Virus record (IMG/VR): IMGVR_UViG_3300048606_000166
Location: 1 to 64,000 of that record
DNA length: 64,000 nucleotides
Origin: a virus
Lineage: Duplodnaviria > Caudoviricetes
Strand: one strand, 5' to 3'
In this document: positions 20,321-55,062 of the stretch, in pieces
How the letters are laid out: each line of letters opens with the position of its first letter
Position numbering within the stretch: position 1 is the stretch's first letter
Program-made: the position numbers and the translations under genes
The notes under the pieces: model-generated
What the model saw: the letters and a program-made list of their open reading frames with translations, nothing else
What the model was told of the DNA's origin: nothing
Databases searched by the model: none

Positions 20321-20515
20321 TCAATCTGACGCGCTCCTCCATCCAAGCTTTCCGCACCATTTGCAGCGCGCGTAGTCGAGCCTCGGCCCGAAGATTTCCC
20401 AGAGGGGTCGATCGGCTGGGCAGGCCACCGACCGCCAAGCGTGCGCCCCGCGCGAGCATCGCCGTGCGGCCCGGTCCGCCCGCATCCACCGGAACCGCTC
20501 GAGAAGGCTGGCCAT
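20321..20515 (-). CDS. Small hypothetical protein downstream of the tRNAs
   Basis: 64 aa, C...HAW...CKWCG motif; same strand as tRNAs. Confidence 0.4.
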   Translation of the reverse strand: MASLLERFRWMRADRAARRCSRGAHAWRSVACPADRPLWEIFGPRLDYARCKWCGKLGWRSASD

Positions 20516-20530
20516 CCGTCACCCCGTTTG

Positions 20531-20602
20531 AGGCGCGGATGGGATTCGAACCCACGTTGGACGGTTTTGCAAACCGTTGCCTAGCCACTTGGCGACCGCG
20601 CC
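20531..20602 (-). tRNA. tRNA-Cys (GCA), CCA not encoded
   Basis: GGCGCGG/CCGCGCC acceptor stem, ACGGT-TTGCAAA-ACCGT anticodon arm, GGTTCGAATCC T-loop, U73. Confidence 0.92.
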
Positions 20603-20610
20603 AAAAACTG

Positions 20611-20682
20611 CTCCGGTGCGAGGGCTCGAACCTCGGACCCGGCGGTTAACAGCCGCCTGCTCTACCACTGAGCTACACCGGA
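20611..20682 (-). tRNA. tRNA-Asn (GTT), CCA not encoded
   Basis: TCCGGTG/CACCGGA acceptor stem, GGCGG-CTGTTAA-CCGCC anticodon arm, GGTTCGAGCC T-loop, G73. Confidence 0.93.
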
Positions 20683-36269: not shown

Positions 36270-37856
36270 CTAGAGGGGCAGGCTCGTGTCGGCATCGATG
36301 ATGACGACCGTGCCGAGGACAGGGAACGCGAAATTGGAGATGACGACGTCGGAGCGCAGGCCGTTCAGAAGAAAATCGGTCTGGCCCGCCCCGAGCTTGC
36401 GGAGCTCGGCGACGTCCCGGACCACGTTGTAGACGTCGGAGAAGGGCAGCTCGCCGGTCGGGTTGCCGTCGGCATCCTTGAAGTGCCAGCCGAAGTCGAC
36501 GCGCGGGTTTTGCACAAGCGCGTCGCCGTCGGCCGCCGTGACACCGATGGACGCCGCGAGCTCGGGCGCTGTTGCCAGGAGATCCGACGCCCTCACCTGG
36601 ATGGCGAAGAACGTCTCGAGCGCGTTCAGCACCGCGGCCTTGGCCTGCGCGCCCGTGACCCCTGGCCGCTTGTACGCGAGCAGCGTCACGTCGACGGTCG
36701 CGTAAGGGGCGGTCTGGGTGATGAGGTTGAGCGTGTTGGTCTTCGGGTAGTCCGCGGTAGGACCAGCGAAACGGGCGCCAATCTCCGTCACGAGCGCCGG
36801 CGAGGCCTGCCCGCCGCCGATCGGAACGATAAAAAGGCGGCCCGTGTTCTCGGGTACGGCGGGATCCTCGTTCTTCGTGAGGTAGAGCGCGCGCGCTACG
36901 CCCGTCGTCAGCTCGGCCACGATTTCGAAGTCCTCACGGGCGACCGCGCGCGAGAGCACGCGCAGCTGCCGAGGGGCGTTCTGCTTGATCTGCGCGTTCG
37001 ATTCGCGGTTGGTCCCGCCGATCGATTTCACGAGGTTCTCGGCCGAGAGCGCGACCGGGTTGCCGAGCGAGTCGCGGTAGACGCCCTCGAGCACGCGCAC
37101 GCTGCCCACCTCGAGCACGCCGATGTCGCCCCCTCCGGTCTTGTAAGTGACCGTGAGGGTGCCGGTCGGGATGGCGCCGTTGATGCCGTTGCCGAACCGG
37201 AGCTGGCAGCGGCCGAGCGCGTCGACCGACTCGACGTAGTGGCGCTCGGTCGAGTCGGAGTCGAGGAAGTTGCCGACCTGGGTGTAGGCGCCGTTGCCGG
37301 CCGTGACGATGGACGAGTCGTCGAGAAAGGGCGCCTTCGTCAGCTGAAACGTCTGGTCGGGTACGCCCTGCTGCGGGATGAAGGCCTCGGTGGTTCTGAC
37401 CGAATTTTCGAGGGTGAGCGTCACGCTCGTCTGCCCCGCGGCGAGCTCCTCGTCGTCCTCGACCTCGAAGCGGATGGCGTTGGTGACCTCGGGCGTTTTG
37501 ACGCCGTTGCCCTTCGCGATGGGCACTGGATTCGCGAGGGGCGCGGGAAGACTAAAGCGCACGTCGACCGTCGCCGCCGTCGCCCCCCCGGGCTGGTAGG
37601 CGAGAAGCTTCGCGTGCGCCATGACGCTGCGCCGGAGCTGCGCGCTGACGAGGCGCGATTCGCGCGCCCACTTGTCGATGTAGAAGGCCTTGAGGTCCGC
37701 GAGGTGCGCCTCGAGCTCGATGAGGAGGTTGCCGAAATTGGCGACGTTTTCTTCCGTCCACTTCGGGAAGACCGAGCGGATGAGGTTTCTCATCCGCGCG
37801 AGCACGTTCGCGAAATCCTTGTCGGTCTTGTCGAGGACGATCGGCAGAAGGGCCAT
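36270..37856 (-). CDS. Baseplate J/gp47 family protein
   Basis: DKDF...FP.WT....NFG..L.E; FGNG.NG.IP; GG...ES...IK..AP..LR...RAV..EDFE. Confidence 0.88.
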   Translation of the reverse strand: MALLPIVLDKTDKDFANVLARMRNLIRSVFPKWTEENVANFGNLLIELEAHLADLKAFYIDKWARESRLVSAQLRRSVMAHAKLLAYQPGGATAATVDVRFSLPAPLANPVPIAKGNGVKTPEVTNAIRFEVEDDEELAAGQTSVTLTLENSVRTTEAFIPQQGVPDQTFQLTKAPFLDDSSIVTAGNGAYTQVGNFLDSDSTERHYVESVDALGRCQLRFGNGINGAIPTGTLTVTYKTGGGDIGVLEVGSVRVLEGVYRDSLGNPVALSAENLVKSIGGTNRESNAQIKQNAPRQLRVLSRAVAREDFEIVAELTTGVARALYLTKNEDPAVPENTGRLFIVPIGGGQASPALVTEIGARFAGPTADYPKTNTLNLITQTAPYATVDVTLLAYKRPGVTGAQAKAAVLNALETFFAIQVRASDLLATAPELAASIGVTAADGDALVQNPRVDFGWHFKDADGNPTGELPFSDVYNVVRDVAELRKLGAGQTDFLLNGLRSDVVISNFAFPVLGTVVIIDADTSLPL

Positions 37857-40926: not shown

Positions 40927-43900
40927 CTATTGAATGAACCAGTTGGTGCCGTTCGATCGGACCGTCCACGCGCCCCAGTTGGTCGAGAAAACGTAGGAGG
41001 CGGCGATCCCCATGATCTGCTCGGCCGCGGCGCGAACGAGGGTGATGTTGTTCGTCCCGCACAAGCCCGAGATGTCGATGAGGACGACCGTGCGCGCAGC
41101 GGCGGGCGTCGGCAGCGTGATCGCGCGCGGCACTGTCGTGTCGACGAAGACGATGTAGTCGGCGCCATTGCTGATGGTGACTGGCGTCGTCGTGACCGTG
41201 AGCGTCTGAAAGCCGCCCCCGCCGAGCTGCACCCACGCGCCGTTCGTGCGCACGTAGATCGAGCCGTTCGGCGAGCCGCTGCGAAAGTAGGCCGAGCCGT
41301 CCACCTCGGCCGCGGAGGGCACGGCCGTTCCCTCCGTGATGGTGACGACGCCGGTTCCGATCACGAGGCCGACGGTCACCTTCGCGCTGCCGATGACATC
41401 GAGTGCGAAGGCGGGTGTGGTCGCTGCACCAATCTTGAGGCCCACATCATTGAGGCGCGCGATGCCGACGCCCGATCGGACGAAGTCGATGACGCCAGCG
41501 CCTGGAACGCTAAGGCGCGTGTCGGTGTTGCCGTTGCCCCAAAGCGTGGTGTTGGTTGCAGACGGCGTGATGTTGCCGAACCAGATCGCGCCATGCGTCG
41601 TGGCCGAGCCGGTGAGGTTATCGGCGAAGACCTTGCCTGTGGCGGAACCGGCCGTCACGCGGCCTCCAATGATCGCGCTACCGACCACCTCGAGCATCGC
41701 GGTCGCCGCCGACTCCGCTCCAATCTTGAGGCCCGTTGAGTCCCAATACCCGCGACCGGTGTTGGCCGTGCGAAACCGGATGTTGGCCGGCCCATTGATC
41801 ATCGTGTAGGTCGTGCCGTCCCCGCGAAGCGAACCGTTCGTTCCCGATGGCGTAATGGGGCCGAACCAGATTGTGGCATCGGACGACGGAAAGGTGATGT
41901 CGCTGTCGATGACGACCTTGCCCGCACCGACGCCGATCTTCGCGCGACCGATGACGTCGAGCATCGCCGTTGCAGCAGTGTTGTCTCCAACGCGAAGACC
42001 TGTCGTTCTCCAAGTTCCAATCTCGCTATTGCTGATCGTGAATCGAAGATAGGTCGTGCTGTTCAGCGACGTGTCACCACCATCTGAACCGTACAGCGCG
42101 TAATTCGCCGCACCAAGCACGGCCTGCGTGCCTAAGTAGATAACCCCGTGCGATGTTGGTGCCGACGGGTGACTGTCCAGAACTACCTTCCCCCCGCTGA
42201 CCCCGAACTTCGCACGGCCGACCACGTCTAGCTTCTCGGTCGCGGCCGTCGAGTCGCCGATGCGGAGGCCCGTCGCGTTCCACGTCCCCTTGTACGTGCC
42301 AGCTGTGGTGATAACCCGAAGGATGTCTGCATTCAGAAAAATGCCGTTGATGGTTCCACCGGTGATGCTCACATAATTATCGTTCGTGGCGACAGGGTTC
42401 TCCGCCCTCAGAAACTCGTGCGTGCCGCGCTTGAGGACGAAAGGCCCTGCCTGCGTGGTGCCGGCGCCCGCCTGGAGAACGAGCGAGCCGCCCGTGCTGG
42501 TCGTGCCGGTGGCGTTCTGCGCTTGGATGGTGAGCGTTGCCCCGGTCGCGCCGTTGGTCGTGACGTCGCGCTGGTAGAACTTCGGCGTGACCGTCGCGGC
42601 ATCGATGCAGATGCTGCCGACGACGTGCAGCTTTTCCGCTGGGTTATTGCCGGACCCGAGCCCAACACCAAACCCGCTAGCCCGGGCGAGACCGATGACA
42701 GCCCCGCCAATAATGAAGAGGGTTTCCACTGCCGAGTTGAGTACCGCTACGGAATTGCCGCCGTAGAGCGTGTAATTCGTGCTGCTCGGGGTGATGTTGC
42801 CGAGCCAGAGCCCACCGAAAGCCGTCTCGCTGCCGATGAGACTGCCGATGACCGCCCGGCCCGTCGAGCTCGTGGTGCTTGCCACCGTGAGCCCGATTGC
42901 GCTGATGGTTCCAATCGTGACGCCGCCCCTCTGAAGGTTGAGAGCACCAGGCGCCGTCGTGCCCGTGCCGGAGGTCAGATTGAGGGCACCGCCCGTCGAG
43001 GTGGTGCCGGTCGCATTTGCGGCCTGGATCGTGAGGGCGGCCGCCGTCGCGGCGTTGGTGACGTTGTCGGCCTGAAAAAACTTCGGCGTCGTGGTCGCTG
43101 TGTCGATTTTGATGTTTCCGAGCACCTCGAGCCGCTCGGTCGCCGCCGTGTTGTCGCCAATCCTAAGTCCAAATGAATTCCAACGGCCAGCTGACACCTG
43201 ATTGACGACGAAGCGCAGCGGACCGTTGCCGGGCACTTGCAGCTGGACGTCCGCCGTCCCATTGCTGTAGAGGATCGAGTTCGTCGCGGTGGGGGTGACG
43301 TTGCCCATCCAGATCGCACCGAATGTGGCTTCGGACCCGATGAGGCTGCCGATGACCGCGCGGCCGCCTGCCGGGCTGACTGTGCTGCCCACCGTCAGCC
43401 CGATCGCGCTGATGGTTCCAATCGTAACGCCTCCCCTCTGCAGGGTGAGAGCACCGGGCGCGGTGGTTCCGGTGCCGGAGGTCAAGTTGAGCGCGCCGCC
43501 CGTCGACGTGGTGCCCGTCGCGTTCGCCGCCTGAATCGTGAGGGGCTGCCCGGTCGCGCCGTTCGTCGTGTTGTTAGCCTGCTTGATGGTCGGCGCCACA
43601 ACCGCCGCGCCCCACTCGATGACCGCCGCATCCCCCGAGACGCGGAGGGCGACCGTCGCGTCGCTCCGCCGGAACTCGACCAGGTTCGCCGTCTGCGCGG
43701 CGTTCGCGACGATGACGACCCCTTGGGTGTCCGCCGCGCCGCCGACCGTGATCCTGCCCGTCGTCGTCAGGTTCTGCGCGGAGAAGTTTGTCGAGGGGAC
43801 CCACTTGCCCGAGTGGTTGATGAGCGCCTGGCCCTCGGCCCCGCCCGACAGGCCGATGCTGCCCGCCGTGAAGGTGCGCAGGACCCAGCGCCCCGCCTCG

Positions 43901-44493
43901 CTCGTGTAGGCGGCCGGCTTGAAGACGAGCTCGTCATCGTCGGCCGCGATGCTCGCCGCGTCCCAATCGAGGATCCCGAGCCCAGGGACGAAGCACGCCT
44001 TCTGGCGGTTGCCGATGTGCGCGCGCAGCTCGGTCTTGTCGGCAAAGGTAGGATAGAGGGCGTCTATCCACGCGCGCGCCCGGTAGTCCCACCCCTTGCT
44101 CGTGTCGGCGCCTTCCTTCTGCTCTTCGCCGAAGGCGGGCTCGGTGTGCCCTCCGTCGACGATGTGGCCTAGCTCGTCGCGGGTGACATTGAAGACGAGT
44201 CTGCGGCGGTTACCGGCGGCGACATCGGCATTTCGGACGCGGACCTCGACCTCGTATGGTCCGAAGGCGTCGGGCGTGACGTCCGCCGGCGTGAAATCGC
44301 CGATGACGTGGTGACCGAGCAGCGTCGAGCCCGCCGGGGCGTCGAGGTAGAGGATCTCGCAATTGGCCTCGGGCCCGTCCGCATCGACGACGAGCGTGAG
44401 GGGGTGCCCCTTCCAGATGTCGTCTCGCCCGGTGTCGACCGTGCCGGCCGGCACCGGGTTAGCCGCTTGGTTAAACCGAAAGTGTGCCCCCAT
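40927..44493 (-). CDS. Long tail fibre protein with internal repeats (1188 aa)
   Basis: Gly/Thr/Ala-rich, repeated TLTIQAANATGTTSTGG and AIW.GNITP modules. Confidence 0.78.
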   Translation of the reverse strand: MGAHFRFNQAANPVPAGTVDTGRDDIWKGHPLTLVVDADGPEANCEILYLDAPAGSTLLGHHVIGDFTPADVTPDAFGPYEVEVRVRNADVAAGNRRRLVFNVTRDELGHIVDGGHTEPAFGEEQKEGADTSKGWDYRARAWIDALYPTFADKTELRAHIGNRQKACFVPGLGILDWDAASIAADDDELVFKPAAYTSEAGRWVLRTFTAGSIGLSGGAEGQALINHSGKWVPSTNFSAQNLTTTGRITVGGAADTQGVVIVANAAQTANLVEFRRSDATVALRVSGDAAVIEWGAAVVAPTIKQANNTTNGATGQPLTIQAANATGTTSTGGALNLTSGTGTTAPGALTLQRGGVTIGTISAIGLTVGSTVSPAGGRAVIGSLIGSEATFGAIWMGNVTPTATNSILYSNGTADVQLQVPGNGPLRFVVNQVSAGRWNSFGLRIGDNTAATERLEVLGNIKIDTATTTPKFFQADNVTNAATAAALTIQAANATGTTSTGGALNLTSGTGTTAPGALNLQRGGVTIGTISAIGLTVASTTSSTGRAVIGSLIGSETAFGGLWLGNITPSSTNYTLYGGNSVAVLNSAVETLFIIGGAVIGLARASGFGVGLGSGNNPAEKLHVVGSICIDAATVTPKFYQRDVTTNGATGATLTIQAQNATGTTSTGGSLVLQAGAGTTQAGPFVLKRGTHEFLRAENPVATNDNYVSITGGTINGIFLNADILRVITTAGTYKGTWNATGLRIGDSTAATEKLDVVGRAKFGVSGGKVVLDSHPSAPTSHGVIYLGTQAVLGAANYALYGSDGGDTSLNSTTYLRFTISNSEIGTWRTTGLRVGDNTAATAMLDVIGRAKIGVGAGKVVIDSDITFPSSDATIWFGPITPSGTNGSLRGDGTTYTMINGPANIRFRTANTGRGYWDSTGLKIGAESAATAMLEVVGSAIIGGRVTAGSATGKVFADNLTGSATTHGAIWFGNITPSATNTTLWGNGNTDTRLSVPGAGVIDFVRSGVGIARLNDVGLKIGAATTPAFALDVIGSAKVTVGLVIGTGVVTITEGTAVPSAAEVDGSAYFRSGSPNGSIYVRTNGAWVQLGGGGFQTLTVTTTPVTISNGADYIVFVDTTVPRAITLPTPAAARTVVLIDISGLCGTNNITLVRAAAEQIMGIAASYVFSTNWGAWTVRSNGTNWFIQ

Positions 44494-44509
44494 GCACCCC
44501 CCCGGCCGG

Positions 44510-44518
44510 AACCTATCA
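44510..44518 (-). promoter_or_regulatory. Extended -10 late-type promoter for the long fibre gene
   Basis: TGA-TAGGTT on minus strand, 16 nt before ATG with G-run RBS. Confidence 0.5.
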
Positions 44519-44576
44519 TGGTGCGGCTAAGCGCCCACAACTCCGGCCGGTTGCGAATGTGAGAGACTTTCCTTAG

Positions 44577-44647
44577 GGCACGTTGGAGCAGCGGCAGCTC
44601 ATCGGGCTCGTACCCCGAAGGCGGTGGTTCGAATCCATCACGTGCCC
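44577..44647 (+). tRNA. Atypical tRNA, anticodon CGT (Thr), initiator-like arms
   Basis: Acceptor GGCACGT/ACGTGCC, D-stem GAGC/GCTC, anticodon arm TCGGG-CTCGTAC-CCCGA, T-arm GGTGG-TTCGAAT-CCATC; no CCA. Confidence 0.8.
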
Positions 44648-44650
44648 TTT

Positions 44651-45424
44651 TCAGCAGGGCGGGTCGGTCGAAAGCGGCACCGGCCGAGGGAGTTTCGGAA
44701 AGCCCGGGATCGCGTCGCGGATGCTCTGCAAGAACTTGATGGCGTCGTCGAACGGCTCGATGGCCTCGATGGCGATGCTCGCGATGGGATCGATCGGGAT
44801 CTTGATGCACTTCTGGCCGATGAGCTCGAGCAGGGTGTTCACCATCATCACGAGGCGGGCGATCGGCTTGACCGAGTCGTTGAAGTTGATGAGCTGGATC
44901 GCGAGGTTCTGCTTCGAGCAGATGAGCGCCGCGGCAAGCGCCGTATTGTTGAGCTTCTGCGCCTTCAGCTCGAGGTTCACGATGCGCGCCTGCTGGACGA
45001 TGAGGGCTTGCATCTCGTCGCGAAGGCCGACGAGCGCGACGATGATGGCCTCGAGAAGGGTCTTCACCATGACCGGCACCGAGCGCGGCGGGAATGCCTC
45101 GGTCAGCTTGTCGAGCTTCGCCCCGAGCTTCTCCAGCAGCGCGAGCAGCTTCGCCGGGTTAGGAGGGGGCCCCAAGATCCCCGGCACCGCCTTGATGCAA
45201 TCGACGAGCGCCTGCACGACGTCCATGATGTTGAAAATCGGCGTGAGCGGCGCGAGCGCCGAATTGGCCTGCGCCATGAGCCCGCGCGTCGCGGCCGCAG
45301 CCGAGCCGAGGTGAAGGTGGTCGACCGCGAAGAGCTCGGCGCCGCCCGGAAGGAGCAGCCGGAGCTCGCCAGGTCCGGGGTTGAGATCCGCGCAGTTGCC
45401 TTCGATGAGCGGTATCGGCTCCAT
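44651..45424 (-). CDS. Hypothetical helical protein in baseplate cluster
   Basis: 257 aa, coupled to the spike gene. Confidence 0.7.
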   Translation of the reverse strand: MEPIPLIEGNCADLNPGPGELRLLLPGGAELFAVDHLHLGSAAAATRGLMAQANSALAPLTPIFNIMDVVQALVDCIKAVPGILGPPPNPAKLLALLEKLGAKLDKLTEAFPPRSVPVMVKTLLEAIIVALVGLRDEMQALIVQQARIVNLELKAQKLNNTALAAALICSKQNLAIQLINFNDSVKPIARLVMMVNTLLELIGQKCIKIPIDPIASIAIEAIEPFDDAIKFLQSIRDAIPGFPKLPRPVPLSTDPPC

Positions 45425-46014
45425 CAGATCTGGTCCTTCGAGGGGCGCACGATGCGCCCGTTGATTTGGATTTGTGCCGCCTCGAGCGAGAGAATGCCGT
45501 CGGCTTTGAGATTGAGCAGCGAGGTTGCCGCGATCTCGATGCCGTGGCTCTCGAGATCCATAGTGATGTGGTCACCCGAGACGGTGTTCTCGACGACGAC
45601 CAGCTGGCCGACCTTGCCCTTGCGAGGGCGCTCGTCGACCGTGATGACGACCGTGCCGAGCTGCAACACCTGCACGTCGTGCGCGTCCTTGCCGGCATCC
45701 TTCGCCGTGCCCGGCATCTCGCTGCCCTCCTTCGGCCGCACCCCCCAGTTGCTGGCGGCGTAGGCCGGGCGCTCGACGTCGCCGCCAAGAAACCAGACGA
45801 TGCAGTCGGCCCCGAGCGCGGGAACGATGTGGCCGCCCCGCTGAGGGGCGCCGCCGCCCATGGTGATGGGCACCGCCCACGCGGAAGGATCGATGATGCC
45901 CGGCACCGCGAGCCGAACGCGGTGAAGCCCCATCGGGTCCGCGCGGTCGACGACGGTAGCCGGCCAGGCCGAGAAATAGCGAACGTCGTCAGCGTGCTCT
46001 TGGGGGGTCGGCAT
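45424..46014 (-). CDS. Baseplate assembly protein V / Gp5-type OB-fold spike
   Basis: ATVVDRADP...RVRL.VP...WA......P.LG..C.V.F.GGD...P. Confidence 0.85.
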   Translation of the reverse strand: MPTPQEHADDVRYFSAWPATVVDRADPMGLHRVRLAVPGIIDPSAWAVPITMGGGAPQRGGHIVPALGADCIVWFLGGDVERPAYAASNWGVRPKEGSEMPGTAKDAGKDAHDVQVLQLGTVVITVDERPRKGKVGQLVVVENTVSGDHITMDLESHGIEIAATSLLNLKADGILSLEAAQIQINGRIVRPSKDQI

Positions 46015-47492
46015 TAGGGAATCGTCCTCGAAACGCCTGCTTGGTTGTCCTCGACTCCGCTCGATGCGCGCGACATGCCCGCCCCGACATCCGCGACCCC
46101 GCCGGAACTGACGGCGATTTGTCGGCCCGCGGTGTCGCGGTAGACCGTCGACGAGCGCCCGCTTTCTCGGTCGACCGACTCGAGCGGGGTCACCGCCGCG
46201 GTGCCGCCGCTCGCTGCGCCGCCCTTCTGGGCGTTGGTCGCGGCCGCCGCTTTGACGCCCTTGCCCTGGCCCGGCAGCTCGTCGAAGGCGGTCCCCGTGG
46301 CGAGGTTACGCCCGTCGCGCCGGAGCTTGAGGACGCACTTGTAGCTCGAGCCGTCGAGGTCGTGATGGCAGCTGGTGATGTAGTAATTGCCCGAGACCGT
46401 CGGCCCGATGCGCTCGACCGAGACCACCGATTTGCCGACGAGGCGCGGATCGCCCCACACCGTCATCGTCAGCTTGACGGCGAGCAGCTGCGCCCGCTTG
46501 TACGCGCCGTCGGCATGGCGCTTGGCCGACTCGGCATTCGCTTCGGTACTCGGATGAATGGCGGCCGTCGCCGTCGTCTTCGCGAGCGGCTCACTGTGCG
46601 TGGTGCCGTCCTCGCGATTGACGATATCGATCACCGGCGCGAGGGCCGTGCGCTCGGTGTTTTTATTGTTGGCGGTGTAAGAGAAGTCCTGCTTGGTGAT
46701 GGCATCGCGCCCCATCGCCTTCACCTCGCCCGGCTTTGCCGCCGAGATGTCGTTCTCGATGTCCCAATCGATGATGTCGCCCGCGTCGGGGCCCGAGTAA
46801 TAGATGAAGGTTCGGATCGGTTTTTGCCGCAGTTGCCGCTCGTGAAAGTGAAAGCCGTCGAAGTCGATGTACCAATCGAAGCCCTCGCGCTTGGCCATGT
46901 CGCGTAGGAGCTGCGCGTCGGTCATGCGCGCCTGGCAGACGTGAGGCTGTACGACTTTGGTGTCTTGGATGAAGACGCGCTCGCCCTCGAAGCCGTACTC
47001 GAGCGCGACGCGCCGGGCGACGTCGCTTCGCCGCACGTTGTCCCAGGTCCGGATCCGGTGCTCTCTGTGAAAGAGGATTCCCTTGTCGTAGGCCTCGACC
47101 TTCAGCTGCTTGGCCCCGACGACCTTGTGAATGACGGCCTCGCGCGTCGGCGCCATGAGCCCCGGGTAGCCCCAGCTTGCCTCGATGATGTTGCCCTTGC
47201 GCCAGAGGGGCGAGTCGATGAGCGAGAGGTCGAAGTTGTCGACGACGAGCTCGATTTTGTCGACCTTCGATTCCTCGTCCTCGTACTTGAAAGAGGTAAT
47301 CCGGTCGGACTGGTCGACGCGCACGCCCTTGCCATCAGGCGCGCGCACTTTGACGGTATAGATCGGGCTATCGCGCCGCTGCCCGATAGGCACGCTCACA
47401 TGCGTCACCCTCGGATCGGGCGGCAGCACCGTGAGAAACTGCCCGGCAGGTCCGCCTTTCTTCTTCCTGCCGCCCCCCCGCCCGCGCGCCAC
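46014..47492 (-). CDS. Baseplate hub (late control D / gp27-like) protein
   Basis: S.D.I.L..DN...GN.I...WGY; Q...TD...L...A.REG; GDP.L.....V..IG...SGNYYI. Confidence 0.82.
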   Translation of the reverse strand: MARGRGGGRKKKGGPAGQFLTVLPPDPRVTHVSVPIGQRRDSPIYTVKVRAPDGKGVRVDQSDRITSFKYEDEESKVDKIELVVDNFDLSLIDSPLWRKGNIIEASWGYPGLMAPTREAVIHKVVGAKQLKVEAYDKGILFHREHRIRTWDNVRRSDVARRVALEYGFEGERVFIQDTKVVQPHVCQARMTDAQLLRDMAKREGFDWYIDFDGFHFHERQLRQKPIRTFIYYSGPDAGDIIDWDIENDISAAKPGEVKAMGRDAITKQDFSYTANNKNTERTALAPVIDIVNREDGTTHSEPLAKTTATAAIHPSTEANAESAKRHADGAYKRAQLLAVKLTMTVWGDPRLVGKSVVSVERIGPTVSGNYYITSCHHDLDGSSYKCVLKLRRDGRNLATGTAFDELPGQGKGVKAAAATNAQKGGAASGGTAAVTPLESVDRESGRSSTVYRDTAGRQIAVSSGGVADVGAGMSRASSGVEDNQAGVSRTIP

Positions 47493-47842
47493 TAGAGATG
47501 CTCCGCCCGCCGCGACTCGGAGAAGATGTCCTCAAGCACCGTGCGCACCGAGGGGATGTGCATGACCCGGCCGATCTCGAGCTTGATGGTCGGATCGAAC
47601 ACTGGATCAGGCTGGAATTCGGCGATGACCCACCAAAGCTCGGCCGGGTTGTCGATGCCATGCACGTCGAAATAGCGGCTTGCGAGCGCCCAGAGATTAT
47701 CGCCCTCGACGACCTTGTGGCGTTGGTTGTCGGGCAAATCCTCGTAGCCGAATGGCTCGGGGTCCGTGAGAAAAACCGTGCCGTCCTCGTCGGTCACGGC
47801 CGAGCAGAAGCGGTAACGCGAGAGCCGCCCGGGCGCCGCCAT
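47492..47842 (-). CDS. LysM-domain baseplate protein (gpX-like)
   Basis: H.VVEGDNLWALA..Y......WWVIAEF. Confidence 0.8.
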   Translation of the reverse strand: MAAPGRLSRYRFCSAVTDEDGTVFLTDPEPFGYEDLPDNQRHKVVEGDNLWALASRYFDVHGIDNPAELWWVIAEFQPDPVFDPTIKLEIGRVMHIPSVRTVLEDIFSESRRAEHL

Positions 47843-47843
47843 G

Positions 47844-48413
47844 TCAGCCGCTCCCCTGCACGACGTCGTCGAATTCGAGGCCGAACTGCAGCATGTCCTC
47901 GAAGGTGATGCGCCGGCCCCAGTCGATCTCGAACGAGAGCTTCGCCGAAAAGAGCGTCGGGGCGCCCTCCTTCGAGAAGCGCTTGTGCCCGAAACTCGTG
48001 CCTGTCAGCTTGCCGACGATCGAATACATCCGCGGCCAGAAGATGAGAATTCGGGAGGGCGCGCCGGAAAGAACGTCCTGCGCCCCCCGCACCGGGTAGT
48101 TGCACGCGATGAGAAATCGCCGCGCGAGCTCCGGACGGACCTTGCCGTCTGGCGCAAGGTCGGTGATGGGCCCCGAGCTCGCGATGTCGCGAAGACTCTT
48201 TTGGTCGAAGCCGAGGTCGAAGGAAATCTTGGGGTTCGCGGTGTGGCTGAACTGCATCGGCTCGTACGACTGGCCGAGGATGGCGAGCTTGCCATAGACG
48301 GCGGCGAACTCCTCGCTCACCTCGTTCGGGTTGAACTGCGCCGAGATCATCGACCCGCTCTTCAAGTGCGTCAGCGTGATGCGCTCTGGTTTCAGGTCGG
48401 GATCAGCCGGCAT
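47844..48413 (-). CDS. Tube-initiator protein (CIS tube / Afp7-like N-terminal domain)
   Basis: AQFNPNE.......P.QF.......SF.L.FD...P......W...F...G.P. Confidence 0.7.
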   Translation of the reverse strand: MPADPDLKPERITLTHLKSGSMISAQFNPNEVSEEFAAVYGKLAILGQSYEPMQFSHTANPKISFDLGFDQKSLRDIASSGPITDLAPDGKVRPELARRFLIACNYPVRGAQDVLSGAPSRILIFWPRMYSIVGKLTGTSFGHKRFSKEGAPTLFSAKLSFEIDWGRRITFEDMLQFGLEFDDVVQGSG

Positions 48414-48418
48414 CGGGC

Positions 48419-51100
48419 TTACCCCTCGCTGCTCATGCTGACCGGCAGCGAGCTGCGGTCGGCGTTCGAGCGCCCCATGCTGGCGTTTAGCTCCCCGATC
48501 GCGCGGCCATCGACGACGAGCGTCGCTCGCACGATCTGAGGGGCGGAGGACGATACCGGCCCGCCGCCAGACATGATCGGCTCCGGCGCGCCCGCAGCAG
48601 CGGCGACGGCCGGCGCGGTCGCGGGCGTCGGCCCCGCGGGGCTAAAGTTCGGCTGCGGTCCGAGGTCGTTGAAGTTCGGCGAAAAGGCATCGGCCGCTAC
48701 GCGATCCGCCTCCGTCACACCGAAGGTCGATCGAAGCGCGTTCTCGGTTACCGGCCGATGAGCGGTCAGATCGCTCAAGAGCTTCGAGGCGCCGATGTCG
48801 ACATTGAAGATCCGCATGATGGTGTCGGCGAGACCGACGACCAGCTTCATGACGCTCTCCATGGCCTTGTAGATGGTGAAAATGACGCCGAAGACGATTT
48901 CCTTCATACCGAACCAAGCGCGCGTCCAGTTGTCGAACAAGGCCCCGCCGACGAGGTTACCGATGCCGCTCAAGATGGTCATGACGCCCACCAGCACATC
49001 CCAAAGGCTGTAAGCGACGCCGATGACCGCATTCAGGGCGGCGAGCCCGGTGCCGCTCAAGATCTCGCCGAACGTCGTCCAGCCGCTCTTCGCACTCTCG
49101 ACCTCGATGGTCTGCGAGTGAAGCGATTCCTTCAGGTCTTTGAACTGGGTATTGAGCCCCTTCAAGAGCTCGGTGTCGCCCGTCATGCCCTCCCAAAATT
49201 TGTTCCATCCTTTGATGAGGCCGGTGAAAATGTCGGTGAGCGCGGTGATTGTCTTCGTGATGATCTCGATGGCGTCGACGATGAGTGCGCCGGCCGTCTT
49301 GCCGGCATTGCCCCACTTGTCGAAGGAGTTCTTGGCCGCCGCGTGATCGATCGCCCCCTCGGTCAGGCCAAGGGCCTCTGCCAGCCTGAAGAATGCGTTC
49401 TTCAGGCTCTCGAAGGCGGGCGCAACGCTGCCGATGTTTTCCTTGATGCCGCTGACGACACCCTCGAAAAAATTCTGGATGCGCGCGACCACGAGAAAGA
49501 GGTTGATCGCAAACTTTTTGATCCCCGAGTTGCCCGCTTCGTTGAGCTCGTCGCGCACGGCGCCCGAGAAGCCGCCGTCGGTAAATAGCTGGACGATGGC
49601 GCGAAAGCCGAGCCGAACCTTCGTGAAAACGTTGTGCAGCATGTCGGCAATGCCGCCGACGTTCTGCGTGTAGGCTTGGCGCAAAGCGTAGAAAATCCCG
49701 ATCAAGACGCCGATCGTCGCGATGACCGGCAGCATCACGAGCAGGACTTTACCGAACGAAATGGCAATGCCGCCGAGGCTGATGCCGAGTAGCATCATGG
49801 CGGACTTGACCATGAGAACGGTGCCGACGAGCGACAAGAACGCGCCCGCCCCGAGCACGATCTGACCGACGAAGGCCTTGACCGGCTTTGGCACGGCCTG
49901 AAGCGCGCGGTTCAGCGAATTGATCCCGCTGACCGCCAGGGAAACGATGGGCTTGAAGACAGCCGCGAACGCCTCGCCGCCGAGAATTTGAGCGGTTTCC
50001 TTGGCGCCCTTCAAGAGAATGAGCTGGCCCTGGTAGGTGTCGAGAAGAGCGTGCCGGAATTCCTCGGCCGAGCCCGCCGCGCCGCTCATTTCCTTGCGCA
50101 TCGCCGCGATCGCGTCGCGGCCCTTCAGCGTCACGTCGATGCCGTTCTTGCTCTGGGTGAAGGAAGCTTTCTGGATCGATGCGAAGGCGAGAAGCCCTCG
50201 AGCACCGAAGGCGTCGACGACGAGGGCATTGCGCTTTTGCTCGGTCCAGTCCTTCGTCTTGTCGATGAGGTCGCCGGTGATGTCGAGCACCGGGCGCATC
50301 TTGCCCGTGAGGTCGTCGAAGATTTTGACGTCTGCGGCGAGCACGGCCTTCTGCGCGCCCGCGTCCGAGCCGAGCCGCCGCATCGATTCGCGTAGCGCCG
50401 TCGCCGAGGAGGACGCGTCGATGTTGCGGTTTCGGAGCAGGCCCATCGTGATGAGGGTGTCGTCGAGAGTCTGATTGAAGACGCCGGCCGAGGCGGCCGC
50501 GGTCGAGAGCCCCGCCTCGAAGTCGCCGAAAGAAAAGTTCGTGAGGTTCGTCGTCTTCACGAGCTTGTCGACCAGGACCGTTGAATCGCTCGCCGCCATG
50601 CCGAACGAGTTGAGCGTGCCGACGACCGCGCCCGCGGCGCCCTCGACGGAAAGCTTGCCGAACGACGCGCCGGCGAGGTCGAGCACCGGCACCAGGGTGG
50701 AGACGGCTTCCTTCGCCGTCTGGCCCGCGGTGGTGAGCGTGTTCAAGCCCTCGACCGCGGCCGTCGGGGAAAACTCCGTCTTCATGCCAGCTTCGAGCGC
50801 CGCATTGCGGAGCATCTCGAGCTCGGCGGTGGTCGCCTTGGTGACGGCGCCGACCGCCGCCAAATTGAACTCGAAGGCCGTGAACTTCTCCGCTGCCTTC
50901 ATGCCGATGGCGAGCGTCGCCGCCCCGGCGCCGAGCGACAAGAGGCCGATCTTGGCCGCCGACAAGCCGCTCGACGCAGCGGCCCCGGCGAGCCCCCCCG
51001 CCTTCTCGAGCTGCTTGAAGTGCCCGGTCATCTTGCCGATTGTGTCCGTCGCCATGTCCTTGGCGGTAAACACGAGCCCGAGCCCCAGTGAATTGAGCAC
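48419..51100 (-). CDS. Tail tape measure protein (TP901 family)
   Basis: [15 protein letters not shown]...LR..AL..G..T.FS...A.EG...L..AG. Confidence 0.92.
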
Positions 51101-52818: not shown

Positions 52819-55062
52819 TTAGGCCGCCAACGCCGCGAGCTCTGCTTCGAGCGCTTCGTTGTCCGGTCCGATGAGGATGTTGATGAACTCGGCTGGCACC
52901 GAAGTCGCGAGACCGACGCGCGCCTTGACCGTGCGCTGCGCCTTGACGGAGGCCGGGTTGAGGCCCTCGCCGAAGTCGACCGAGAACGCTTCAGAGGGCA
53001 CCTTCGAGGCGAGCGCGTCGTTCTTGCAGAGCTCCAAGAGAAAGAGCTGCACGGCCATCTTCCCCTCCTCGTAGAGGCGGTTTTTGATGTTGCGGTGCCG
53101 CATGAACGCGAGCCCGGGCCGAAGTCGCTTCTCGACGAACATGACGCCGCGCCGCTGGCCGATGGAGGGCCAGTTGCCCTGGATGTTGAGGTTGCGCGCG
53201 CCGTCGAGGAAGATGGGCAGGCCGTTCTCTTTCGAGATGGGATTGATGTTGTGCGGAAAGATGCGCTCGCGCACCGGCTTCTTCTTGACCTCGTCGGTCT
53301 CGAGCCCGGTCACGTTCTTTGGCAGCACCGAGTCGTCGACGCCGGCCGGCTGCTCGAAGGCGCCGCCCACCTTGCGCCCGTCGTTGCGCGCGTAGATGCC
53401 CGCGATCATCCCCGACGGCGGGATGGTGATGTTCTTGTCGTTGCCGTAAATGGCCGTCTGAGGGTTGGCGACCTTGATGCGCGGCCAGTAGATGGCGGCG
53501 TTCTCGGTGAGGCCGAAGAGGCCCGCGGTGTCGGTCGTGTACGTGTCCATCTGCTCGCCCGAGTAGCCCGCCGGCGGATCGAGGACGGCGAAGATGAGCC
53601 CCTCGCGCGTGATGTCGCAATAGGTGATCATCCCGTTGTGCACGGCCGAGGTGGCGCGCCCGGGCACACAAAGGACATCGATGTCGTCGCTCTGGTCGAA
53701 GAGGCGAAGCCCGGTCGAGCCGTTCGACCCTGCGCCCCCCGTAAAGTCCGCGTCGGCCAGGCTCGTGAGCCCGTCGCTTCCCCCTGTCATGGGGCCGAAC
53801 GTGCCGACGGCCGGCACATTGCCCGGCGGGTCGACCGTGCTTTCGAGGTCGGTCACCGTGATGAGGTTCGAGCCGGTCAGGGGGTCGTTGATGACGGTCT
53901 CGACGTAGCGCTTGGAAGTCGGGTCGAAGTTCACGCTCGGCCAGCGCTCGGTGGCGACGCCGTTTTTCAGCACGTTCAGATTGAAGTCGGTCGCCGCGCT
54001 CGATGCGGCCGCTGCGATCTGGATGGTGAGCGCGCCCGTGTAGCTGCCGTCGGTCTTGCCGTCGATCGTGAGCGTGCTTTGGGCGCCCGCGGCCGCGCCC
54101 GCGTGCGAGGCGTTGTCGAGCCCGAACTCGTCGTCGGCGGTCGAGGACGCGTTCACCTGCACGGCGCCGCCAGCTCCTGCCGTCGTGGTCGCGATCCTGA
54201 GCCGGCCGCTCGAACTCGTGACCAACGTGCCGACGACCGCCGCCTCGATGATGGCCTTCGCTTCGGCGAAGGTCACGGCGGCGATCCTGGCGACGTTGCC
54301 CGTCCCGTTGACCACGGCCGTCGCGAAGCCGAGCGCGCCGTTGGCCGTGCCGCCCGTCACCTCGACGTGCGATGCGGTGCCGACGGTCTCGCTCGTGATG
54401 CGCGGCGCGTTCGCGTTCACGTCGACGAGCGCCCCCGCGAGGCCGGCGGAGATGACCGCCGCCACCTCGGCCGCGGTCGCTGCACCGATGGCGACGAAAT
54501 TGCCCGTCGCGAAGGTGATGGTCTGCACCGCGCCGCCGTCGATCTTGACCGTAAGCGTCTGCCCGTTCGAAAGCGCGTAGGGGCCCGTGGTCGCTGCCGT
54601 CCTCACGGCGGCCGCCGCGTTGAAGGTCGCCGACGCTGGCGCCCCCCCGTTGACCACAACGTCGAGATCGTCGCCCGGCATAAGCGCCCATGGGCCGCTC
54701 GTCGTGCCCGTCACTTGTCCGCTCGTCGCCCCCGCCGCGGCGGTAAGCAAGGTGAGCGTGCCCGCCGCGCTCGTTTTGGTCGTAGGATCGGACACGTCCG
54801 TGAAATGCACAGTGCGACCGACGAGCAGGCGCGCGCCGCCATTGTCGAAAAAAGACTTCGCGTTCGTGGCGACGTCGCTGTTCAGCGTGTAGCCGCCGAA
54901 GACGGCGCCGTACTCCGTGAAGTCGACGACCATCTGCGCGGTGGTGAGGGGGCCGCGCTCGGTCACGCCGAGCATCGCGAGCGTGAGAATCGCACCAGCT
55001 GGGATGCGGCGAACGACTCGCTGCTCCTGCTGCGTCGTGACTTCGGACGTCAAACCGGGCAT
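52819..55062 (-). CDS. Contractile tail sheath protein
   Basis: FF.NGG..L.V.R N-terminus; YWPRIKV, PPSGMIAG.YAR.D, INPI, RR...F.EK; inserted Ig-like domains. Confidence 0.93.
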   Translation of the reverse strand: MPGLTSEVTTQQEQRVVRRIPAGAILTLAMLGVTERGPLTTAQMVVDFTEYGAVFGGYTLNSDVATNAKSFFDNGGARLLVGRTVHFTDVSDPTTKTSAAGTLTLLTAAAGATSGQVTGTTSGPWALMPGDDLDVVVNGGAPASATFNAAAAVRTAATTGPYALSNGQTLTVKIDGGAVQTITFATGNFVAIGAATAAEVAAVISAGLAGALVDVNANAPRITSETVGTASHVEVTGGTANGALGFATAVVNGTGNVARIAAVTFAEAKAIIEAAVVGTLVTSSSGRLRIATTTAGAGGAVQVNASSTADDEFGLDNASHAGAAAGAQSTLTIDGKTDGSYTGALTIQIAAAASSAATDFNLNVLKNGVATERWPSVNFDPTSKRYVETVINDPLTGSNLITVTDLESTVDPPGNVPAVGTFGPMTGGSDGLTSLADADFTGGAGSNGSTGLRLFDQSDDIDVLCVPGRATSAVHNGMITYCDITREGLIFAVLDPPAGYSGEQMDTYTTDTAGLFGLTENAAIYWPRIKVANPQTAIYGNDKNITIPPSGMIAGIYARNDGRKVGGAFEQPAGVDDSVLPKNVTGLETDEVKKKPVRERIFPHNINPISKENGLPIFLDGARNLNIQGNWPSIGQRRGVMFVEKRLRPGLAFMRHRNIKNRLYEEGKMAVQLFLLELCKNDALASKVPSEAFSVDFGEGLNPASVKAQRTVKARVGLATSVPAEFINILIGPDNEALEAELAALAA

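Follow-up and report, generated by a model that had tools for sequence, protein, structure and literature searches.

What is a transfer RNA (tRNA) gene with the body of an initiator and the anticodon of threonine doing in a bacteriophage genome, on the opposite strand to the tail genes around it, and where did it come from? The gene lies in a 64-kb window, which is the whole stretch of DNA analysed here and the first 64 kb (positions 1 to 64,000) of the 83.9-kb IMG/VR virus record IMGVR_UViG_3300048606_000166 (66% GC, CheckV completeness 82%). The phage is a myovirus, and the tRNA gene lies antisense among the minus-strand genes of its tail and baseplate operon. From comparative sequence analysis we regard it as well supported that this gene is a Met-to-Thr anticodon-shifted copy, in which A35G turned CAU into CGU after the split from the closest known relative of the phage, because the syntenic orthologue in that relative carries CAU and the initiators sampled all have A35.

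Cloverleaf anatomy and the initiator-type body

ARAGORN identified a tRNA-Thr(cgt) at 44576-44648 (+), and Rfam family RF00005 matches 44577-44647 with 62.4 bits (E 3.8e-11), above its gathering threshold of 29 bits. The elements on which the argument turns are the following, with lengths in nucleotides (nt).

44577-44647, plus strand: tRNA gene from G1 to discriminator C73, 71 nt, placed by Rfam, ARAGORN and the pairing table
44576, plus strand: G at position -1, for which pairing with C73 is possible; the orthologue has C at this position
44586-44600, plus strand: D arm with stem GAGC/GCUC, A11:U24 (44587 and 44599) and a 7-nt loop AGCGGCA, the same as in bacterial initiators with a 7-nt D loop
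44602-44618, plus strand: anticodon arm UCGGG-CUCGUAC-CCCGA with G29-C41, G30-C40 and G31-C39, from the pairing table in the Rfam register
44609-44611, plus strand: anticodon CGU (C34, G35, U36), in which G35 is the shifted base
44613, plus strand: C38, where the orthologue, all bacterial initiators sampled and 15/15 real Thr tRNAs have A38

The acceptor stem GGCACGU/ACGUGCC forms seven Watson-Crick pairs in the Rfam register, beginning with G1:C72, G2:C71 and C3:G70 beside discriminator C73, and is followed by U8 and G9. Position 26 is A, the variable loop is AGGC (4 nt), the T stem GGUGG/CCAUC and the T loop UUCGAAU. Each of the 21 stem pairs is either Watson-Crick or G-U, and the conserved bases U8, A14, G18, G19, U33, the GUUC of the T arm and A58 are in place. 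The gene ends with C73 and then UUUU, without an encoded CCA. A preliminary description, made by a model from the letters alone, had reported a full cloverleaf with anticodon CGU and the acceptor pairs G1-C72 and G2-C71; ARAGORN, Rfam and the pairing table bear out the first, and the pairing table the second. A plain minimum free energy fold gives no cloverleaf, as is common for tRNAs, so we relied on the covariance-model alignment.

The register of ARAGORN is one base off that of Rfam, as it uses a pair between G-1 and C73. The same pair had been described earlier as His-like. The pairing is indeed possible, G being present at 44576, but it is not conserved, as the orthologue has C at -1. We therefore take the Rfam register as the real one; on this comparison the G-1:C73 pair is an accident of the flank. 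The tRNA likewise falls short of a His-type 8-bp acceptor, which would call for a conserved G-1 and for the anticodon GUG in place of CGU.

The D and anticodon arms were said to follow initiator tRNA, including three consecutive G-C pairs, and this holds: the motif cited is exactly present. It equals the consensus of >230 sampled initiator tRNAs save for A26, G35 and C38, and 36 of the 39 residues that the tRNA has at positions 8-46 follow the initiator consensus. Loop residues C32 and U33, as well as G46, are also initiator-like, and an R11:Y24 pair in the D stem has been named as an initiator feature (PMC9976931). The GGG/CCC combination at 29-31/39-41 was found in none of 139 unique non-CAU reference tRNAs. 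Reference Thr tRNAs look different. All 15 start with G1-C2, carry U8-A9 and end the anticodon loop with A38, and the loop of the window tRNA departs from every one of them at positions 32/38. When compared with a complete Pseudomonas set of 56 tRNAs, its nearest neighbours were the three initiator copies (alignment score 30), with Thr(CGU) scoring 13.

We also scored the tRNA on two small home-made covariance models, one built from 36 initiators (R1) and one from 14 Thr tRNAs (R2).

Window tRNA: 72.3 bits on the initiator model, 39.5 bits on the Thr model
CAU orthologue: 87.4 bits on the initiator model, 54.9 bits on the Thr model
True initiators: 89-99 bits on the initiator model, 51-53 bits on the Thr model
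Real Thr tRNAs: about 44-56 bits on the initiator model, 88-94 bits on the Thr model
Best elongator: 66.9 bits on the initiator model, not applicable to the Thr model

The initiators used to train R1 were drawn from a scan whose pattern came from the window tRNA itself; Pseudomonas initiators from outside the training set still score 89 bits. The score of the window tRNA on R2 lies below that of nearly every other type I tRNA tested. Weighing isotype scores against the anticodon had been proposed as the check on whether this is an ordinary Thr tRNA, and the scores of 39.5 bits on the Thr model, against 88-94 bits for real Thr tRNAs, and of 72.3 bits on the initiator model speak clearly for the answer given earlier, that it is not. 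Judged by these features, the window tRNA is an initiator-type body joined to an elongator-type, fully paired acceptor end and a Thr anticodon.

We searched for a second example of this combination in one genome for each of 185,579 prokaryotic species, in IMG/VR and in metagenome samples. The anticodon arm with CGU gave 10 matches in the species scan and 18 and 2 matches in the IMG/VR scans, none of them a tRNA, and no tRNA combining the arm with CGU was found in the metagenome samples either. Exact-pattern scans for near relatives of the tRNA returned nothing from viral contigs, nor from metagenomes when the acceptor stem was included. An ordinary Thr tRNA of the host clade was rejected as an explanation, as no tRNA with this arm and CGU was among the matches from genomes or IMG/VR.

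The CAU orthologue and the direction of change

The relatives taken from NCBI are metagenome contigs. The closest one found is a Logan contig (L065), the sheath of which is 82% identical to that of the phage and which is gene-for-gene syntenic with the window. At 20582-20656 (-) of this contig ARAGORN identified a tRNA-Met(CAT), antisense, in the gap between a gene of 256 amino acids (aa) and a large gene. We take the two tRNAs as orthologues because the flanking coding sequences align. They are identical at 64/71 positions, with 8 differences in all, and have the acceptor stem, the D loop and the anticodon stem in common. The orthologue has the loop CUCAUAA, variable loop AGGUC, T stem GGCGG/CCGCC, C73 and an encoded CCA. 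An anticodon-switched tRNA was among the earlier suggestions, together with a search for a CAT version in relatives; as that version exists in L065, the suggestion proves to be the right reading. Another contig (L345), from a second run of the same study, has a sequence identical to L065. It was rejected as a third lineage, being the same genotype from a sister run.

The two loci differ 3' of the tRNA. The CCA and hairpin region of the orthologue is gone from the window (44648-44650), where there is a run of four T instead. In L065, at 20505-20581, a GC-rich inverted repeat (~68 nt) comes after the encoded CCA; it may serve the two convergent genes as a bidirectional terminator.

At this spot, more distant relatives (sheath identity 53-59%) lack the tRNA and the large gene alike. 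The large gene, of 1188 aa in the window, and the tRNA co-occur only in this phage and in L065/L345, and both are absent at the spot in L067, L068 and L189; the pair therefore looks like one lineage-specific insertion. In the latter three contigs the 257-aa gene is followed directly by a gene of ~325 aa and then by the gp25 and baseplate J genes. Large proteins that otherwise differ share an N-terminal part of ~80 aa with the 1188-aa protein, at 52-84% identity, as would be expected of a swappable tail-fibre or receptor-binding module. BLAST searches with the locus and with the hub protein found no match among 50,697 GenBank phages, and the best relatives of the sheath in that set are only ~25% identical. 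In IMG/VR the 257-aa protein has no relatives, and those of the hub protein (33-42% identity) lack any tRNA.

To give the change a direction we used bacterial initiators as the outgroup. A scan of metagenomes with the pattern of the D and anticodon arms, position 35 being left free, found at least 120 loci, each of them a true initiator tRNA of bacteria (type CGCGGGG...CCCCGCA-ACCA). Among the matches listed, a 1x72 mismatch is present in 115/119 and A73 in 118/119, and all have CAU and A38. A similar scan of IMG/VR found at least 111 loci, all with CAU and A35; among the matches listed, most have A38, a few U38 and none C38. Positions 8-65 of the orthologue equal those of one initiator (L081) but for C25U. 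On this polarity G35, C38, A26 and the loss of U47 are derived in the window lineage and U25 is derived in L065, whereas the T-stem differences, C51:G63 versus U51:A63 (compensatory) and C64 versus U64, are not polarisable.

Two observations concern the acceptor ends of initiator-type tRNAs more widely. Two IMG/VR contigs (L259 and L326) carry an initiator body with CAU, G1:C72 and C73, the only two such among the matches listed. Pairing of positions 1 and 72 is possible in 24/103 viral initiator-type tRNAs (mostly as U:A or A:U, and counting some duplicates), compared with 4/119 metagenomic ones.

The comparison shows that an ancestor of the phage and its closest known relative had a tRNA(CAU) antisense between two baseplate-region genes, with positions 8-65 those of a bacterial initiator and with the acceptor remodelled to the paired GGCACGU/ACGUGCC and C73. 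In the window lineage A35 changed to G, G26 became A, A38 became C and U47 was lost; the T stems of the two orthologues also differ, with pairing kept. Conservation at positions 26/44 and 32/38 is reported to follow the anticodon, and these positions to co-vary when an alloacceptor shift takes place (PMC3923123). The non-stem changes of the window tRNA fall at 26, at 38 and in the variable loop, which are such anticodon-tuned positions.

The changes that accompany the shift bear on whether the gene still works. All four stem differences between the two orthologues keep pairing, the universally conserved bases are untouched, and the Rfam score is barely altered (62.4 bits in the window, 63.5 bits in L065). 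When we simulated seven random substitutions, all 21 pairs survived in 3.9% of trials, and all pairs together with 12 conserved bases in 0.6%. This pattern favours continued selection as a tRNA. Beside it, a decoy for anticodon nucleases or tRNA-sensing defences and a non-translational RNA, both put forward in the preliminary description, are hypothetical.

An alternative is that the gene is a relic, which lost its Met function with the anticodon mutation and is now drifting, being unexpressed, uncharged or of no use. The lack of a detected sigma-70-type promoter, the loss of the encoded CCA and 3' hairpin of the orthologue, which leaves the gene abutting a stop codon, the several derived changes of the window lineage (A26, G35, C38 and the U47 deletion) and the fact that distant relatives do without any tRNA would all fit such a decay. 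Decay would not be expected to leave 21/21 pairs and the conserved tertiary bases intact, with one compensatory double change (probability 0.006-0.04 under random substitution), nor an unchanged Rfam score, nor non-stem changes on positions that co-vary with the anticodon. We consider the relic unlikely, if still worth taking seriously.

Probable decoding of ACG and the alternatives to it

In our assessment the window tRNA probably, if by no means certainly, works as an elongator tRNA-Thr(CGU) that would be threonylated and would read ACG. The acceptor end points away from initiation. Formyltransferase needs a 1x72 mismatch, aided by A73, G2:C71, C3:G70 and G4:C69 (PMC9976931), and an initiator with a Watson-Crick 1-72 pair is a poor Fmt substrate that can take part in elongation (PMC6393288). 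The window tRNA has neither the mismatch nor A73, its G1:C72 being Watson-Crick and its discriminator C73. G1:C72 would thus keep the tRNA from formyltransferase and permit EF-Tu binding, leading to a role in elongation.

Charging with threonine is predicted from the anticodon and G1:C72. The threonyl-tRNA synthetase (ThrRS) of E. coli reads G35, U36, G1:C72 and C2:G71 and does not need A73 (PMC8092322). Both anticodon determinants are present in the window tRNA and those of the acceptor are half present, with G1:C72 in place and G2:C71 instead of C2:G71. G35 and U36 with G1:C72 would make the tRNA a substrate of ThrRS and remove it from methionyl-tRNA synthetase (MetRS). In E. coli, changing the anticodon of tRNA-Met raised the affinity of ThrRS ~10^4-fold and lowered that of MetRS >10^5-fold (Schulman and Pelka 1990, as summarised in PMC8092322). 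Yeast deleted for its only tRNA-Thr(CGU) gene is rescued by an elongator tRNA-Met in which CAU has become CGU, and the same change is natural in Xenopus and six other species (PMC8092322). ACG is the commonest Thr codon of the phage, making up 50% of its Thr codons and 31 per 1000 codons, compared with 18 per 1000 for ATG, and the tRNA would add decoding capacity for it.

Several points weigh against this account. G2:C71 replaces C2:G71, a determinant of E. coli ThrRS; C38 is found in 0/15 real Thr tRNAs, and A38 may help the formation of N6-threonylcarbamoyladenosine at position 37 (t6A37); and C73 is unusual for Met and Thr tRNAs alike. A shortage of ACG decoding in the host, beyond the demand seen in phage codon use, is hypothetical. 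A scan for sigma-70-type promoters and terminators at the tRNA locus was empty. The argument from selection rests on 8 differences between two sequences only, and the T-stem changes are not polarisable because only two lineages are known. Finally, MetRS can mismethionylate tRNA-Thr(CGU) of E. coli (PMC9976931), so some charging with Met is possible.

In another alternative the tRNA would be mischarged or have a dual identity. It would take Met, should MetRS accept CGU on a body of Met type, or His, should RNase P leave a G-1 that pairs with C73, and a wrong residue would be inserted at ACG. G2:C71 and C3:G70 are Met-type pairs, G-1 with C73 are the main determinants of histidyl-tRNA synthetase, and the window has both G-1 and C73. 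The mismethionylation reported for E. coli lends this some credit, but the anticodon change by which MetRS lost >10^5-fold in affinity, as that work is summarised (PMC8092322), runs the other way, and G-1 is not conserved in the orthologue. ACG also accounts for 3% of all codons, so systematic miscoding would be costly. We regard mischarging as very improbable.

Initiation at ACG, which the preliminary description had put up for testing, fares poorly. Here the tRNA would be a private start-codon reader, using its initiator features (the three G-C pairs and A11:U24) to start translation at ACG. It does retain an initiator-type anticodon stem and D stem, and engineered initiators are reported to begin at non-AUG codons (PMC11744186). 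G1:C72 and C73 nevertheless stand where formyltransferase needs the C1xA72 mismatch and A73, and the genes of the phage start conventionally: of the 22 gene starts that could be aligned with L065, 18 are ATG or GTG in the window, and for the remaining four one of these codons lies within a few codons. No coding open reading frame of the 84-kb genome continues in a coding-like manner 5' of the first canonical start. Given G1:C72 and the absence of ACG starts among those found, an initiator role is unlikely, and we attach hardly any weight to it.

A further possibility shares the decoding of ACG by a tRNA-Thr(CGU) with the elongator role proposed above and adds a reason for its odd structure, namely escape from host defences. 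The non-Thr acceptor stem and unusual anticodon loop would evade host toxins that disable tRNA-Thr, either acceptor-reading toxSAS or anticodon-loop nucleases and modifiers, or other tRNA-sensing defences. FaRel2, for example, picks tRNA-Thr and tRNA-Gly by G1-C72, C2-G71, G4-C69 and R5-Y68 (bioRxiv 10.1101/2024.07.05.602228), of which the window tRNA has only G1-C72. The anticodon loop is unlike those of 15/15 Thr tRNAs at 32/38, phage tRNAs with anticodon-loop changes have been proposed to escape tRNases (PMC10264068), and a toxin that ADP-ribosylates the Thr anticodon loop is reported (PMC13617354). Anti-defence context is, however, absent around the gene, and no host with a toxin of this kind can be named for the phage. 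The acceptor stem did not arise for Thr decoding, since the orthologue with CAU has it too. Defence evasion strikes us as improbable. If it were true, ACG decoding would be kept going during infection, and an identity switch, rather than a mutation in the loop of a cognate tRNA, would supply the escape isoacceptor. The practical consequences of the finding are modest unless the tRNA proves to be such a defence-escape device.

Genomic setting and comparison with known systems

The genes around the tRNA are as follows.

52819-55062, minus strand: sheath, tail/baseplate operon
48419-51100, minus strand: tape measure, tail/baseplate operon
47844-48413, minus strand: tube-like protein, tail/baseplate operon
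47492-47842, minus strand: LysM-like protein, tail/baseplate operon
46014-47492, minus strand: hub, tail/baseplate operon
45424-46014, minus strand: gpV-type spike, tail/baseplate operon
44651-45424, minus strand: 257-aa gene of unassigned function after the gpV-type spike gene, convergent with the tRNA and kept in all relatives examined
40927-44493, minus strand: 1188-aa gene, divergent from the tRNA, without a family match
36270-37856, minus strand: baseplate J, tail/baseplate operon

The stop codon of the 257-aa gene (44651-44653) begins right after a 3-nt gap 3' of C73. Four T follow C73 directly (44648-44651, plus strand), the last of which belongs to that stop codon. On the other side, the ATG of the 1188-aa gene (44491-44493) sits 83 nt from G1 of the tRNA. 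In the stretch between them (44494-44576), which is 5' of the tRNA and common to the divergent gene, the part near the ATG is kept in L065 and the part near the tRNA is not. The tRNA had been placed next to a convergent gene and divergent from a fibre promoter. It does abut the one and is divergent from 40927-44493, but no sigma-70-type promoter was detected and the fibre is putative, as the 1188-aa product has no Pfam or PHROG match and only weak atlas leads.

The whole record encodes two tRNAs besides Thr(CGU), namely Cys(GCA) and Asn(GUU), at 20530-20682, with the full tRNA-Asn of the phage at 20610-20682. At 425-475 of the window, a hairpin of an A-run and a T-run precedes the 3' end of a tRNA in reverse complement, CCA included. 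This 3' end looks Asn-type (discriminator G, acceptor starting UCC), in keeping with a tRNA-Asn gene as the place of an attachment site. The best family match for the sheath is PHROG 15814 ('unknown function', E 1.8e-165), and its relatives on metagenomic contigs of 80-100 kb number in the hundreds, which marks a large, mostly uncultured myovirus clade. Codon use across the record is unusual for many high-GC bacteria, with CTC at 53 per 1000 far above CTG at 17.5 and GTC at 43 above GTG at 24, and this CTC/GTC preference could help to narrow the host. None of 201 sampled genomes of the Streptomyces phylum, and none of 61 genomes of the phylum of a 'Deltaproteobacteria' metagenome-assembled genome, yielded an initiator with a 7-nt D loop.

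Identity-changing anticodon shifts have been described in the nuclear and organellar genomes of eukaryotes, and others were selected in the laboratory. To our knowledge, clear natural shifts for which a syntenic 'before' copy is at hand are rare in bacteria. In the literature searched we found no description of a natural tRNA identity switch in a phage, or of one from an initiator-type body. The CAU and CGU orthologues, 8 positions apart, are a ready pair for asking which changes a Met-to-Thr switch needs when the scaffold has three G-C pairs and its acceptor stem is not of Thr type. The locus also draws attention to phage tRNAs, a small class, that combine the body of an initiator with G1:C72 and C73.

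Compared with bacterial tRNA-fMet, the window tRNA shares A11:U24, the three G-C pairs, C32, U33 and G46, and scores above all elongators tested on the initiator model; it differs by CGU, the paired G1:C72, C73 for A73, C38 for A38 and a 4-nt variable loop. With bacterial tRNA-Thr(CGU) it shares the anticodon with G35/U36, G1:C72, a type I cloverleaf of normal size and a heavily used codon, ACG, whereas it differs by G2:C71, G9 for A9, R11:Y24 for Y11:R24, the three G-C pairs and C38.

The closest parallel is the alloacceptor anticodon shift, also described as tRNA gene recruitment or remolding. Known cases include an E. coli tRNA-Arg recruited as tRNA-Thr (Saks et al. 1998, as cited in PMC3923123) and yeast EMT2 suppressors that change CAU to CGU (PMC8092322), and a survey of anticodon shifts in eukaryotes found none involving initiators (PMC3923123). 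As in such shifts, one substitution (A35G) moves a Met-type tRNA to ACG, the body stays nearer to the donor isotype, the syntenic orthologue retains the old anticodon, and position 26, the variable loop and the 3' side of the anticodon loop have changed as well. The window tRNA differs from them in that its function after the shift is a prediction, in being carried by a bacteriophage and in having an initiator-type donor body.

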